Shown one piece after another: positions 52,803 through 57,209 of a stretch of 64,000 nt of DNA (position 1 is its first letter; each line of letters begins with the position of its first letter). Position numbers and translations under genes: made by a program. Source of the DNA: Candidatus Sericytochromatia bacterium. GTDB taxonomy: Bacteria; Cyanobacteriota; Sericytochromatia; UBA7694; JACMQJ01. Location: contig JAXLXH010000001.1 of assembly GCA_046328015.1 (NCBI GenBank), positions 3,173,135 through 3,237,134 of the forward strand, given 5' to 3'. The notes below the pieces were generated by a model. It did no database searches. It saw only the letters and a list, made by a program, of their open reading frames with translations, and was not told where the DNA came from.

Positions 52803-53879
52803 TTATTCAGTTAATTCATAAATTTTTAATGAATTAGATTCATAATCTTGATAAGCTAAAATATTTTCTGTTTTACTAACATACAAATTAAAATGATAAA
52901 AGTTATTAGAGTTAGTTATTTTTTTTCTTAGTTTTTTCTTTTTAATATCATAAAATAATATACAATTAGGGTTCCAAGTTTCTATAACTAAATATTTGTT
53001 GTTATATGTTACATTCAATCCTTTATTATTTATTCTATATTCATATTGAAAATAATAATCAAGATAATCATCTTCATCTACAGGTATTGTTATTTTATAA
53101 AATAATTCCCAATTTGTTGTATCATAAAATAAAGCCAAATTATCTCTTTTTGTTCCAAATATAATATATTTATCATCATTTGAAAATGTTATTTTAAGAC
53201 CACTATCAAATAAATATTTTATTATTTCTAAATTATCTAAATTTATAATTATTGTTACTTCATCAAAAGTTGTTAATACTAAAGTATCCCCATTATTAGA
53301 AATACAAATATCTTCTAAATGAATGGAAGTATCTTCAAAATTAATTAACTTTTCATTATTTTCTTCTTTATAATAAATTTTTTTTCTTTTTATTTCACAC
53401 CATTTTTCTACGTTAAAAATAATTAAATTCATATGTGCATAATCATTTTCATCTATTTGTTCTAAAGCATATATTATATTTTTTCTTTTTTTATCAAATA
53501 CAAATTTATCATTACTAATTTCAGATGTTTTATATTCTTTTTTTTCTAATGTTTCTAAGTTAACTAAAATTAATGTATATGATAATTCACCCATTATTTG
53601 TATATTCTGTAATTTTAAAAATTTTACATAAAAAAGATAAGATTTATTATCAATTAAAAATATTTCAGATTTAACAATATGTACTTCATTAGTATTTAAA
53701 ATTTTTTCATTAAATATTACATCTAAATTTTTTTTACTTAATACACTTATTTCTTTATAATTTGAATTTATAAAATACATATTATTTTCTGAAAAAAACA
53801 TGTTTTTCCAATAAAAATTATGCTTTAAATAATTATCTAAATTATTAACTTCTTTTTTTAATTCTAATTTTAAGTTCAT
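52803..53879 (-). CDS. paralogous Asn/Ile/Tyr-rich protein P4 (beta-propeller-like repeats suspected)
   Basis: SNNGDTLVLTT / SNDDKYIIFGT blades; last gene of four-gene operon. Confidence 0.6.
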   Translation of the reverse strand: MNLKLELKKEVNNLDNYLKHNFYWKNMFFSENNMYFINSNYKEISVLSKKNLDVIFNEKILNTNEVHIVKSEIFLIDNKSYLFYVKFLKLQNIQIMGELSYTLILVNLETLEKKEYKTSEISNDKFVFDKKRKNIIYALEQIDENDYAHMNLIIFNVEKWCEIKRKKIYYKEENNEKLINFEDTSIHLEDICISNNGDTLVLTTFDEVTIIINLDNLEIIKYLFDSGLKITFSNDDKYIIFGTKRDNLALFYDTTNWELFYKITIPVDEDDYLDYYFQYEYRINNKGLNVTYNNKYLVIETWNPNCILFYDIKKKKLRKKITNSNNFYHFNLYVSKTENILAYQDYESNSLKIYELTE

Positions 53880-53886
53880 TTTTTTA

Positions 53887-55014
53887 TTATTTCACTAATT
53901 CACACAAAATACAGTTTTTTAAAACTAATTTTTTATTATTAGAATCATTTTCTATAAATTTTTTATAAATTTTCAAGAATTTATTTGTATTACTAAAAAA
54001 TATGTATCTATAATTTATGTCTAAATCAATTATACTTCCAGTGCTTATTTCAAAAATGATTGTACCTCTTGTTTTTGTATGGTAAAAACAGTATTGATTA
54101 TTATTAGAAATTTCTACAAATTCAACTTCATAATCTGTTTCACAGTCAGGGTCTAAAATCTCAAACATAGGTGATAAATTAAAAGAGTTATATTTATAGT
54201 TAGAATTTAAAAATTTTTCACCTATCGTATATTCAAATTCAAGAGTTTTTAAATTAAATATATATGCTATATGTGATTTACTACTAATATTAATAGGTAT
54301 TATCAAAAAATTATTATCTAATGTAAATTTAGGCTCTATAAAGAAGGAATATATATCTGAATCAAAAAATTTTATTTCTTTTAATATATTTCCTTTATCT
54401 AGGTCATAAATTAGCATAGAAGTATAATTATCAATTAATAAATATCTTTTATTGTTATTAACTTTTATAAAAAAATTAGGATTCATTTCATCTCTTGTGT
54501 AGCTATTGTTTTGTAAAAGTGTTGTTTCTTTTATAAAATCATTTTTATTTATATTAAATGTTAATATAGAATGTTTTTCATAATTATATACTAGTAAAAA
54601 ATCATTAAAAAATGGATTATCTATGAAACAAACATTTTTATTATAAAAATCAATATTTTTTATAATTGTATTACTAGTAGTATCTAAAGATATTATTTCT
54701 TTAAAATAGACAAAATATATTTTATTTTCTTTTATAAAAACATTTATTTTATTGTATATTGAAGGTTTTTCCTTAAATTTAAAATATTTAGATAAATCCT
54801 CTGAAAATATTTTTTTAACTGTTTTCAAATTTATTATTTCAAACAAAAATGACTCTTCATATAAATAACATATTTCAAGTTTTTCTATAGACAATATTTT
54901 TAAAGATGGAAAGTATATAGCATTACTTAATAGTAAGTTGCTTATTTCAAATGATTTGATTTCTTTTATAATCAAAATATATTTCCTTAATGTTGATAGG
55001 TTATATTTAATCAA
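53887..55014 (-). CDS. paralogous protein P3
   Basis: IAYIFNLKTLEFEYTI resembles P1/P2 ETFELLLRI block; 8-nt overlap with P2. Confidence 0.6.
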   Translation of the reverse strand: MIKYNLSTLRKYILIIKEIKSFEISNLLLSNAIYFPSLKILSIEKLEICYLYEESFLFEIINLKTVKKIFSEDLSKYFKFKEKPSIYNKINVFIKENKIYFVYFKEIISLDTTSNTIIKNIDFYNKNVCFIDNPFFNDFLLVYNYEKHSILTFNINKNDFIKETTLLQNNSYTRDEMNPNFFIKVNNNKRYLLIDNYTSMLIYDLDKGNILKEIKFFDSDIYSFFIEPKFTLDNNFLIIPINISSKSHIAYIFNLKTLEFEYTIGEKFLNSNYKYNSFNLSPMFEILDPDCETDYEVEFVEISNNNQYCFYHTKTRGTIIFEISTGSIIDLDINYRYIFFSNTNKFLKIYKKFIENDSNNKKLVLKNCILCELVK

Positions 55015-56110
55015 ATAAATTTATTAACCATAATTTAAAAGGTTTTTTTGTTAATAAGATAAGAGATTTACTATCATCTGTAAATAACAAGTAGATATCA
55101 GAATAATATCCATTATAACTTATGTCATTATATTTAAGATATAATGATAATGAGTTATTAATTGCTTCATCTTCAATTTTTAGAATTAATTCAAAGGTCT
55201 CAAGACTAAAAATTAATATCTCAAAATCCGAACCATAGTATTCAAAAGAAATAGCTACTGCAAGGTATTTTGAATCATTACTAGAGACAATAGAGTGGAT
55301 TACTTTTTTTCTTTCTCTGCTAAAATCAAAATCCCAATAATAAGAGCCTTTTATTTTATCTTCTATTATAGAATAAAAAATAAGTTTAAGTTTTATTTCA
55401 TAAGGAGGACTATCTTCAAATATATCATAAGTCAAAATATTATTTTTAGATAAATTATAATTATAAAATAAAAAAGAGGGGTTTTTAATTTTTCTTTCTA
55501 GTTTACCAGTATTATAATCTATAATTCTTATATAATTACCAATAATAACAATTTTATCGTAATTATCTATAAAATTAATTATGTAGTTACTTAGAGGAAT
55601 TGAACCTGAATAATTAGTTAAATTAAATGAATAATCATCATCTTCTGGATTAAATGTAAAATCTAAATAGCGATATTTAGAAAAATTATTTTTGTCAATA
55701 AGTATAAATTTATTATCTTGAACAGCTAGTATTTCATTTTTATTTGGAATTAATGTTCTAGTATGAATTTTAAAAGGTAATTCTAATTTTTTTATACTAA
55801 AATTAGATACGTTTAGTATATATATATTTTCAAAATTATTTTCTCTAAAATGATAATCGAAAAAACCTCTTTCTATATAAACAGATACTTCATCATTGTC
55901 TATTAGAGAAGTTCCTTTATAAATTTGAATATATGTATCATTATAATCAAGTAACTCAAATTTGTTATCTTTAACTTTAAAAATGAAGTTATAATACTCA
56001 GTTTCAATCATTATATTATTATAATTCATGTTAGAAAGCTTAATATTTGTAATATTTTCCTCAGTTTCTAAATTATTTAAATTAAATTCATTTGCTATTT
56101 TATACTGCAT
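55007..56110 (-). CDS. paralogous protein P2
   Basis: IIDYNTGKLERKIKNP, SSNDSKYLAVAIS, ETFELILKIEDEAI, PFKLWLINL all match P1; TAATG overlap with P1. Confidence 0.65.
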   Translation of the reverse strand: MQYKIANEFNLNNLETEENITNIKLSNMNYNNIMIETEYYNFIFKVKDNKFELLDYNDTYIQIYKGTSLIDNDEVSVYIERGFFDYHFRENNFENIYILNVSNFSIKKLELPFKIHTRTLIPNKNEILAVQDNKFILIDKNNFSKYRYLDFTFNPEDDDYSFNLTNYSGSIPLSNYIINFIDNYDKIVIIGNYIRIIDYNTGKLERKIKNPSFLFYNYNLSKNNILTYDIFEDSPPYEIKLKLIFYSIIEDKIKGSYYWDFDFSRERKKVIHSIVSSNDSKYLAVAISFEYYGSDFEILIFSLETFELILKIEDEAINNSLSLYLKYNDISYNGYYSDIYLLFTDDSKSLILLTKKPFKLWLINLFD

Positions 56111-57123
56111 TAATTGATATCCTCTTGTGATAATTTAAGTAGTTTTATTTTAAATGGTAAAATAGTATGTATAATTAAAAAATCACTATTTTTACTAAAA
56201 GCTAGGGAATTTGTTAAATTAACTATTTCTTGATCTTCAATTCTTAAAAGTAATTCAAAAGTTTCCATATTATAAATATCTATAAAATATTTTAAATTCC
56301 CTAATTCTATATTATTTATTAAAAAAGCAATATATTTTCCATTATTACTAATAGTAATATTTCTAATTTTAAATCTTTCACTATTTTTTAAAGATTTATA
56401 CTCTATTTTTTTTATTATATCTTTTTTATCTAAGTTATAAAAAATTATTTCTAAATCTTTTAAATTGTTTTTTAAATTCGGAAATACTAGTATATTTTTA
56501 TTAGAAACATCAAATATTTTTTCAGAAGTTCTATTTTCATAAGGTAATTTAATTTCTAAATTACCAGTATTAAGATTAAATATATCTATATATTCATGCC
56601 ATATGATTATTTTATTACCATCATAAGTAAGCTTTATAAGTTTATCTAAATAATATTTACGTATATGAATATTGCTAATATTTAATTTTATTAATTCAAT
56701 TATACTATTTTTATCGTATATTATGATATTTTCATAATTTATAACAATAATTTTATTTTTATTAGGAATAAAATTTACATATTTTGGATGAATATGACTA
56801 CCTAAGATTATTTTTTTTTCTTCTAAAAAATTTTCACTATTTTTTTTCTTAAAAAAATCTATAGAATAAGTATTTAATTCATTTGAATTATAAATATAAA
56901 TAAATTCGTTATTATTTATAATAAAATCAGAAAAAGGACCATCATTATCATAAATTTGTTTATAAAAATTACCAATTCTATTTTGATTTATTTCTAAAAA
57001 AATTATCCAATTTGAATAAAAAATAATTATATTATCTTCAATAATATTTATCTTTGAATCTAATTTGCAAATATTATCAAATTTATTATCTAAATCAAAA
57101 GAATCTATTAATTTATATTTCAT
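56110..57123 (-). CDS. paralogous protein P1, first gene of operon
   Basis: FNLNTGNLEIKL, SNNGKYIAFLI, ETFELLLRIEDQEI, PFKIKLLKL; no signal peptide. Confidence 0.65.
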   Translation of the reverse strand: MKYKLIDSFDLDNKFDNICKLDSKINIIEDNIIIFYSNWIIFLEINQNRIGNFYKQIYDNDGPFSDFIINNNEFIYIYNSNELNTYSIDFFKKKNSENFLEEKKIILGSHIHPKYVNFIPNKNKIIVINYENIIIYDKNSIIELIKLNISNIHIRKYYLDKLIKLTYDGNKIIIWHEYIDIFNLNTGNLEIKLPYENRTSEKIFDVSNKNILVFPNLKNNLKDLEIIFYNLDKKDIIKKIEYKSLKNSERFKIRNITISNNGKYIAFLINNIELGNLKYFIDIYNMETFELLLRIEDQEIVNLTNSLAFSKNSDFLIIHTILPFKIKLLKLSQEDIN

Positions 57124-57153
57124 ATTATCCTTATTAATAAAAAAATAAAAGAT

Positions 57154-57209
57154 TTTATTTTCAAATCATAGTTAATCACCTAAATCATACGTAAATAAAA
57201 ATTCAGACT
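57154..57209 (-). promoter_or_regulatory. conserved leader/promoter repeat copy a (iteron-like AAATCATAnnT units) upstream of P1
   Basis: ttttattttcaaatcatagttaatcacctaaatcatacgtaaat...attcagact; near-identical copies at 60860-60917 and 62203-62259. Confidence 0.55.

Follow-up and report, generated by a model that had tools for sequence, protein, structure and literature searches.

Beta-propeller-like orphan proteins in a leader-headed gene array beside a tyrosine recombinase in a Candidatus Sericytochromatia genome

The rAID-1 arrays of Bacteroidales bring together a tyrosine recombinase, co-oriented genes of skewed GC content and conserved intergenic motifs, and they carry orphan immunity genes (Ross et al. 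2019, bioRxiv 10.1101/471110; PMC12247911). Their cargo genes are typically ~100-300 codons long (PMC12247911), and outside Bacteroidales their recombinase has no close homologues (Ross et al., bioRxiv 10.1101/471110). Here we examine a locus of related outline in a 64-kb stretch of DNA (the window; 64,000 nucleotides of contig JAXLXH010000001.1, assembly GCA_046328015.1, positions 3,173,135 to 3,237,134 of the forward strand), which belongs to a metagenome-assembled genome (MAG) held at NCBI as "Candidatus Sericytochromatia bacterium". On the minus strand of the window, a Xer-like recombinase gene is followed by an array that includes five genes, P1 to P5, for orphan proteins, of which P1 is modelled as a WD40-like beta-propeller, and closely similar leader sequences precede unrelated genes of the array. 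Our preferred reading, which we hold tentatively, is that of an accessory, recombinase-linked array of leader-headed modules with fast-diverging binding proteins.

The likeness to rAID-1 lies in the Xer-type recombinase at the 5' end, the packed co-oriented genes, their lower GC, a repeated intergenic sequence that may be comparable and the lack of an integron integrase, and because of the first four of these features we favour a rAID-like array. The rAID-1 definition asks for a XerD-like recombinase more than 44% identical to Bacteroides fragilis BF9343_RS08045; since close homologues of that recombinase are restricted to Bacteroidales, strict membership is unlikely here. At least two co-directional downstream genes with GC below that of their surroundings are present, while the absolute threshold of the definition (<41% GC) is meaningless in a genome of 24% GC. 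As to intergenic motifs, a leader of ~62-85 nt occurs three times, two of them independent and one immediately 3' of the recombinase, with none between P1 and P4. The cargo is where the two systems part: instead of SUKH-type or similar proteins, the array encodes beta-propeller-like proteins of 330-375 aa with no match to an immunity family in Pfam, NCBIfam or PADLOC and with no adjacent toxin, as polymorphic-toxin loci would have. Unlike rAID-1, moreover, the locus belongs to a Sericytochromatia MAG, its repeat heads multi-gene units, a 3.4-kb block on the opposite strand interrupts it, and no cognate toxins are known for it.

Integrons, sedentary chromosomal integrons among them, likewise place a tyrosine recombinase beside co-oriented cassettes with a repeated sequence. 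The intI gene of classical integrons runs divergently from the cassettes, whereas here the recombinase is co-directional with the array and the repeat sits at the 5' end of a unit, running into the start codon. An integron is ruled out: the recombinase scores 103 bits against 265 for the integron integrase model TIGR02249 and 64 against 435 for PRK15417, the leader forms no attC-like hairpin (z +0.4 to +1.1), and Rfam gives no match. A shufflon or other invertible phase-variation locus is rejected because the three leaders and four GTCTGAA boxes all have the same orientation. A prophage and a known defence system are likewise rejected, as PADLOC returns nothing but a marginal DUF3644 match for orf88 (E 0.013), and PHROGs matches the recombinase only (integrases) and nothing in P1-P5. 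WD40-like propellers in an array shaped like a rAID or an integron are a variant of kinds already known.

The recombinase itself is intact in sequence. It matches Pfam Phage_integrase (E 1e-33) together with a SAM-like N-terminal domain, and the catalytic motifs LRISE, KGGKQR, HDLRH and GHSNIQTTLLY are intact in its translation. Among NCBIfam models its best score is to XerA_Arch (173 bits against a cutoff of 220), followed by XerC/XerD (142-145 against ~330), so that it passes no equivalog model. A search for related loci that started from the recombinase returned only a 24%-identical Xer protein in an alphaproteobacterium. One short-read contig, from SRR26348422, matches 62212-63378 at 100% identity and stops within the leader, a break expected of assemblies, which end at repeats. 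Divergent from the recombinase, a gene for a signal-peptide protein (63590-64000, plus strand) runs off the end of the window.

Read along the minus strand, the order is recombinase, orf88-P5, truncated P1 remnant, a 3.4-kb block of higher GC, sec284 and P1-P2-P3-P4 (Table 1). All of these genes share one strand and the interrupting block lies on the other. The window as a whole is strongly AT-rich (GC ~0.24), and the array genes from the recombinase to P4 go lower still, at 0.15-0.22 against a background of ~0.25; the array DNA, at 0.15-0.20, lies 5-10 percentage points below the surrounding chromosome, and the interrupting block, with its 437-aa gene, reaches 0.30-0.34.

Table 1. Features of the array and of the surrounding window, numbered from the first base of the window; U0457 numbers are exact protein matches in the NCBI MAG, on a contig of 3.55 Mb
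Feature	Positions	Strand	Description
Fourth GTCTGAA box	63252-63258	-	48 nt upstream of recombinase start codon
Xer-like tyrosine recombinase	62356-63204	-	282 aa; 5' end of array, co-directional
Leader of orf88-P5 unit	62179-62258	-	GTCTGAA box to base preceding orf88 start codon
orf88	61912-62178	-	small basic protein, first gene of upstream unit; overlaps P5 start by 17 nt
P5 (U0457_13890)	60939-61928	-	329 aa, beta-propeller-like
Leader of truncated P1	60831-60915	-	part of 324-nt duplicate
Duplicate of leader and P1 codons 1-79	60592-60915	-	324 nt; other copy 56885-57208
Truncated P1 open reading frame	60543-60830	-	overlaps the 324-nt duplicate
sec284	57235-58089	-	284 aa, low GC, signal peptide; directly upstream of P1 leader
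Leader of P1-P4 unit	57124-57208	-	begins 26 nt after sec284 stop codon
P1 (U0457_13860)	56110-57123	-	337 aa, WD40-like beta-propeller (model)
P2	55007-56110	-	367 aa, P1 paralogue
P3 (U0457_13850)	53887-55014	-	375 aa from TTG 55014, 362 aa from NCBI start ~54975; all-beta, propeller-like by inference
P4	52803-53879	-	358 aa, propeller-like, weak evidence
TPR-like small protein/large Ser/Thr/Pro-rich protein	58409-58807/58811-60124	+	two-gene module
TPR-like small protein/large Ser/Thr/Pro-rich protein	49977-50492/48905-49972	-	two-gene module
IS4-family transposase	43001-44170	-	
FHA-GAF-adenylate/guanylate cyclase	19628-21205	+	
TerD-HNH endonuclease fusion	14248-15828	+	

The leader and its mosaic copy

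Three units are headed by a leader of ~85 nt that extends from a GTCTGAA box through to the start codon (GTCTGAAYTWTKATTTACGTATGATTTAGGTGATTAACTATGATTTG). The first ~62 nt of the orf88 leader are 90-93% identical to both other copies, and despite this identity the genes behind the orf88 and P1 leaders are unrelated. Its 35-nt core has exactly three copies, each on the minus strand, and no match in 100 shuffles. The GTCTGAA box itself is found four times when both strands of the 64 kb are scanned, each time on the minus strand and all within 6 kb; the fourth box, that of the recombinase, has no similarity to the leaders beyond these seven letters. In two cases the leader starts only ~20-26 nt past the stop codon of the preceding gene. 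Within it lie two TATGATTTRGG direct repeats, 21 nt apart, with -10-like TATGAT boxes. The leader is absent from the P1/P2, P2/P3 and P3/P4 junctions, where there is no intergenic space, and its 24-mer core has no copy in GTDB representative genomes, JGI metagenomes or IMG/VR. A structured-RNA leader is ruled out, as it shows no fold and no Rfam match.

The sequence-only reading of this DNA had proposed a truncated duplicate of P1, and the duplicate is confirmed, with 7 differences in 324 nt (98% identical) and one amino-acid change in 79 codons. Its start coincides exactly with GTCTGAA, and it breaks off in P1 codon 79-80, at ~60592. All but one of the seven differences fall within the first 62 nt of the leader, and at five of these six sites the truncated copy has the letter of the orf88 leader rather than that of the P1 leader (binomial P 3.8e-4); from position 63 on, it matches P1 except for one substitution. 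The leader of the truncated copy is therefore a mosaic: sequence has passed between leaders, whether through crossover or gene conversion, and the boundary lies inside the leader. Taken together with leaders 90-93% identical in front of unrelated genes, the mosaic argues for a modular recombining element and not just a passively co-duplicated promoter. It does not implicate the neighbouring recombinase as the agent.

The duplicate abuts the 3' end of a convergent DUF952 gene (60263-60610, plus strand), whose reading frame extends ~20-30 nt into it, so that the last codons and the stop of that gene come from the rearrangement junction; its Pfam domain is complete (residues 5-94).

Genes, kinship and fold

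P1-P5 and the truncated copy are open reading frames at the coordinates first proposed for them, all on the minus strand. These frames contain no internal stop, against 13-83 stops in the remaining five frames of the same DNA, and GC falls to 7-12% at codon position 3 as compared with 22-29% at position 1; they are therefore real genes. Between P1 and P2 the stop and start codons overlap as TAATG, as had been noticed, and a Shine-Dalgarno-like box (AGAGGA) stands 8-13 nt upstream of the P2 start. An 8-nt overlap between P2 and P3 had been proposed as well. It exists only if P3 starts at TTG 55014; the NCBI product is 362 aa, which places the start at ~54975 (39 nt, 13 codons downstream) and leaves a gap of 31 nt instead. 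Under either choice P3 lacks an early ATG. P3 and P4 are spaced by 7 nt, and the unit ends, as predicted, in a terminator-like hairpin, a 51-nt palindrome followed by a U-run (52668-52718, minus strand; -16.2 kcal/mol, z -3.8). Upstream, ATG 62178 is the likelier start of orf88 because the listed GTG 62229 falls inside the leader. The gene sec284 is possibly part of the array. Neither orf88 nor sec284 has a significant family match in PADLOC, NCBIfam or PHROGs, and sec284 has none in Pfam.

The description of the proteins as rich in Asn, Ile and Tyr was apt: Asn/Ile/Tyr/Lys/Phe make up 49-57% of P1-P5 as against 38% of other open reading frames in the window. Their N-termini are not hydrophobic, in keeping with the reported lack of signal peptides, and they carry no catalytic signatures.

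Kinship among the five is narrower than the sequence-only reading had it. Of its four paralogous proteins, P1 and P2 are paralogues (29.6% identity over 267 aa, E 3e-12 in all-against-all BLASTP; E ~1e-5 by phmmer), whereas P3 and P4 show no significant similarity. No BLASTP pair between P3, P4 or P5 and P1/P2, or among the three, is better than E 0.14; phmmer against all reading frames of the window likewise joins only P1, P2 and the truncated copy, and when a P1+P2 profile is aligned with P3, P4 and P5 by hhalign, each probability stays under 10%. The three sequence blocks quoted as common to the family are shared by P1 and P2 and absent from P3-P5. What does recur in all five proteins is a strand-turn-strand motif, I/F-S-x-[DN]-G-K-Y-[LI]-x-[FL], with 15 occurrences where shuffles would give 2.2 and control proteins have 0-1, an enrichment that is supportive only, because the pattern was written after the sequences were viewed. 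Blade-type motifs number three in P3 (0.6 expected) and four in P4 (0.3 expected).

In word-indexed searches of 5.8 billion clusters, P1, P3 and P5 retrieved their own entries and a single in-genome paralogue of P5, U0457_12600 (P0006), which is 60% identical and lies about 258 genes from P5 in the same MAG; there is consequently a second propeller locus elsewhere in the genome. The pair is itself a mosaic, with 42% identity over residues 1-150 and 84% over residues 151-329, which suggests either recombination or a diversification concentrated in the N-terminal blades. Run with full HMMER against 1.84 billion representatives, the P1+P2 profile recovered only P2, the truncated copy and one marginal match, a 136-aa protein (P0004; E 6.6e-4) on a 3.5-kb Logan contig of SRR8369859 (L002). 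We dismiss this last as a relative, given that its gene is interrupted by a stop in the bacterial code and its contig needs a non-standard, probably ciliate-type code; it is probably a eukaryotic WD40-like protein. The P5 profile found no relatives in metagenomes, and metagenome and viral collections gave no protein relatives, genome contigs having been searched with the leader and not with the propeller proteins. NCBIfam, PADLOC and PHROGs hold nothing for P1-P5, and no Pfam family reaches its threshold. Exact-protein lookups of P1, P2, P4, P5, the truncated copy and U0457_12600 returned no contig, and only the recombinase was located, on a 1.2-kb Logan contig.

The earlier remark that the proteins resemble nothing nameable thus holds at the level of sequence, with no homologue outside the MAG in the collections searched. 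The orphan status partly reflects sparse sampling, because the lineage is represented by one MAG.

Fold is a different matter. The short blocks of the proteins had been likened to the blades of a beta-propeller, the antiparallel four-stranded units of a closed toroid, and this bears out for P1 in an AlphaFold model searched with Foldseek, extends to P2 by homology and is reasonably supported for P5, with weak hints for P3 and P4. The P1 model, built with P2 as the sole alignment partner, has a pTM of 0.65 and a pLDDT of 61.7 overall, rising to 70-93 over residues ~115-335, where it consists of all-beta groups of four strands. Its first ~110 residues are unreliable, so the number of blades and the closure of the ring are only partly covered. 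Against the PDB, Foldseek returned 744 matches at E<1e-3 (best E 8e-11), and the top matches are all seven-bladed WD40 proteins (Atg18/PROPPIN, TLE1, RACK1, PRPF19 and G-beta) at 10-16% identity. P1 is accordingly taken as a single-domain WD40-like beta-propeller, and so, from its homology to P1, is P2.

P5 is probably also a propeller, judging from a Pfam Beta-prop_EML_2 match (E 9e-5, below the gathering score), from a profile of P5 and its paralogue that matches Atg18 (E 0.0014, spanning one generic blade motif) and from the Pfam propeller families precomputed for that paralogue. For P4, the Pfam THOC3 and EML beta-propeller matches (E 0.05-0.12) and RACK1 (E 0.11) are sub-significant, as is the best PDB sequence match of P3, WDR5 (E 0.27). 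An AlphaFold model of P3 on a mixed six-sequence alignment is of low confidence (pLDDT 39) with a strand-hairpin secondary structure; among the Foldseek matches listed for it, all contain propellers, at a TM of only ~0.2, which is a hint only.

P1 shares its four-stranded blades with the seven-bladed WD40 propellers Atg18, RACK1 and WDR5, as P2 would by homology. Unlike them, the array proteins reach no Pfam threshold, and their identity to solved propellers is 10-16%. WD40 (PF00400) finds no match in P1-P5 at E <= 1, the GH dipeptide is absent from all five, and the only WD dipeptides are one in P2 and one in P5. PROPPIN-type lipid binding is ruled out, since P1-P5 contain neither FRRG, the motif with which PROPPINs bind phosphoinositides in blades 5-6, nor a related motif.

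Weighing the explanations

We propose a model where the leader would supply promoter, 5' untranslated region and ribosome-binding functions and would, at the same time, be the site at which modules join, are lost or duplicate. The agent of such events could be the neighbouring recombinase, or homologous recombination could account for them. The propellers would serve as cytoplasmic binding platforms, each with a different protein ligand, and would diverge fast; between P5 and its paralogue, divergence is much greater in the N-terminal half than in the C-terminal one. Modelled on the rAID-1 arrays of Bacteroidales, a role in conflict might consist of neutralising incoming protein toxins or acting as decoys for them, and it is on this analogy that a conflict-related role is favoured but unproven. 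If modules are truly exchanged by the recombinase, gene capture of the integron/rAID-like kind would reach a new phylum, with the repeat placed at the 5' end and carrying the expression signals, and complete beta-propellers would be added to the few folds that serve rapidly diversifying recognition or neutralisation in bacteria.

How far does the evidence carry this model? The sequence-only reading had described an accessory array next to a recombinase, and to that part of it the shared leader, the low GC, the co-orientation and the mosaic leader all speak, although accessory status rests on one genome. Its further suggestion, an array of immunity proteins or variable effectors, found no direct support: Pfam, NCBIfam, PADLOC and PHROGs give no match, and the window has no recognisable toxin or secretion gene.

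Several points tell against a recombining array of conflict proteins. One genome is all there is, so that mobility, accessory status and cassette turnover are putative. The leader heads units, not each gene, and has only two independent occurrences, because the third belongs to a recent duplication. It folds no better than shuffled sequence (z again +0.4 to +1.1) and contains only short A/T palindromes in place of the inverted-repeat core usual for tyrosine recombinases; lacking both core and fold, it may be just a shared promoter. The extra-low GC could be fast drift in a 24%-GC genome and not a sign of foreign origin. The propeller fold of P3 and P4 is tentative. At 330-375 codons the genes are longer than rAID cargo. 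No toxin or secretion gene is recognisable within the window, the neighbours of the array have no recognisable toxin domain, and no known immunity domain lies nearby.

The same holds for precedent. Complete beta-propellers are reported to be absent from the immunity proteins of polymorphic toxins (Zhang et al. 2012, PMC3482391). Tsi1, with which Pseudomonas aeruginosa protects itself against a type VI secretion toxin, is a partial propeller of three sheets, small and periplasmic, whose gene lies beside that of the toxin; it shows that a propeller-type surface can neutralise a toxin (PMC3391265). It is the only propeller immunity precedent, and a partial one, so full propellers are not an established immunity fold; P1-P5, by contrast, are two to three times its size and predicted to be complete and cytoplasmic, with no adjacent toxin.

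Many of these points would be met by an ordinary lineage-specific cluster, in which tandem-duplicated WD40-like scaffolds diverged in a fast-evolving, AT-rich genome, the leader is a shared promoter and 5' untranslated region, and the recombinase either stands there by chance or is left over from an old integrated element. We consider this rather unlikely overall, and it is the strongest of the rivals. Standalone WD40-like proteins are common in cyanobacteria-related lineages. That only P1 and P2 are recognisably related is what old tandem duplicates would leave, the leader ends at the start codon with its -10-like TATGAT boxes and has neither recombinase-type inverted repeats nor a hairpin, and the remaining window is normal chromosome. 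Such a cluster does not readily explain why leaders 90-93% identical precede unrelated genes, why the leader of the truncated copy is a mosaic, why the array has GC below its flanks and is co-oriented with the recombinase, or why a GTCTGAA box also precedes the recombinase. Were the locus a mere cluster of paralogues, it would still show how far propellers drift in a 24%-GC genome, where five neighbours, probably of one fold, leave one recognisable pair; this would caution against taking a lack of homologues in poorly sampled lineages as evidence of a new system.

A second alternative, which we regard as improbable, takes the proteins for eukaryote-like WD40 mimics, effectors exported independently of Sec into the cell of a host or prey, and assigns the pairs of TPR-like and Ser/Thr/Pro-rich proteins to the same arsenal as chaperone-effector modules. 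In host-associated bacteria, very low GC and orphan proteins are common. Eukaryotic WD40 proteins do lead the structural matches (Atg18/PROPPIN, TLE1 and RACK1, with Atg18 also found by profile), the propellers lack signal peptides, and each of two paralogous small TPR proteins is followed by a large orphan protein of its own. Yet any seven-bladed propeller would draw WD40 matches, identity to the eukaryotic proteins reaches only 10-16%, the FRRG and GH/WD signatures are absent, and secretion-system genes are missing from the window.

A bolder form of our preferred reading, and one we judge quite improbable, is an undescribed cassette system outside Bacteroidales, in which the Xer-like recombinase would assemble and shuffle promoter-leader modules joined at GTCTGAA and the cargo would be hypervariable, complete, cytoplasmic propellers that act as immunity proteins or decoys against injected toxins. 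If that were true, no immunity family of full beta-propellers would have come before it, nor any rAID-like array in the sister lineages of cyanobacteria.

Decaying cargo of a defunct integrated element, with genes drifting neutrally towards pseudogenes, is the least probable of all: the truncated P1 duplicate, the extreme AT content, the orphan genes and an IS4 transposase elsewhere in the window would suit it, but five frames of 329-375 codons stay open where other frames have 13-83 stops, GC is strongly structured by codon position, the C-terminal two-thirds of P1 are modelled with high confidence, and the motifs of the recombinase are intact.

Neighbouring genes and repeats

The bulk of the window is ordinary chromosome, with genes for prolyl-tRNA synthetase, MiaA, an SNF2 helicase and transporters and one IS4 transposase.

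Two modules near the array consist of a small TPR-like protein and a large partner rich in Ser, Thr and Pro. The small proteins of the two modules are paralogous (E 3e-8), whereas their large partners are unrelated to each other; the latter lack a signal peptide and match no family and no PDB entry, and the neighbouring 355-aa and 437-aa proteins gave no match in PDB sequence searches. A small conserved DUF gene comes after each module, DUF302 after the minus-strand one and DUF952 after the plus-strand one. The layout resembles that of a chaperone or adaptor with a variable effector.

Directly downstream of P4 lies a class D beta-lactamase gene (51683-52561, minus strand; 286.5 against the NCBIfam class D cutoff of 250), whose product shares 66-68% identity, across 99% of its length, with the plasmid- and integron-borne enzymes of the OXA-732, OXA-46 and OXA-2 family. 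Its GC of 0.29-0.32 is above the genome background. A 41-nt inverted repeat (50578-50618/52774-52814; 80% complementary, with a 21-nt exact core, AATAAAAATATTGATAAAAAT) flanks an OmpA-family gene and the OXA gene, and could be chance in AT-rich DNA or the mark of an inserted two-gene block.

The hairpin after P4 coincides with one copy of a palindromic intergenic element of ~47 nt (AAACACAC...GTGTGTTT, with a conserved loop) that occurs three times, at 7388-7434, 15890-15936 and 52670-52716, in both orientations. This family, the 'family C' hairpin of the sequence-only reading, looks like a REP-like element or a bidirectional terminator.

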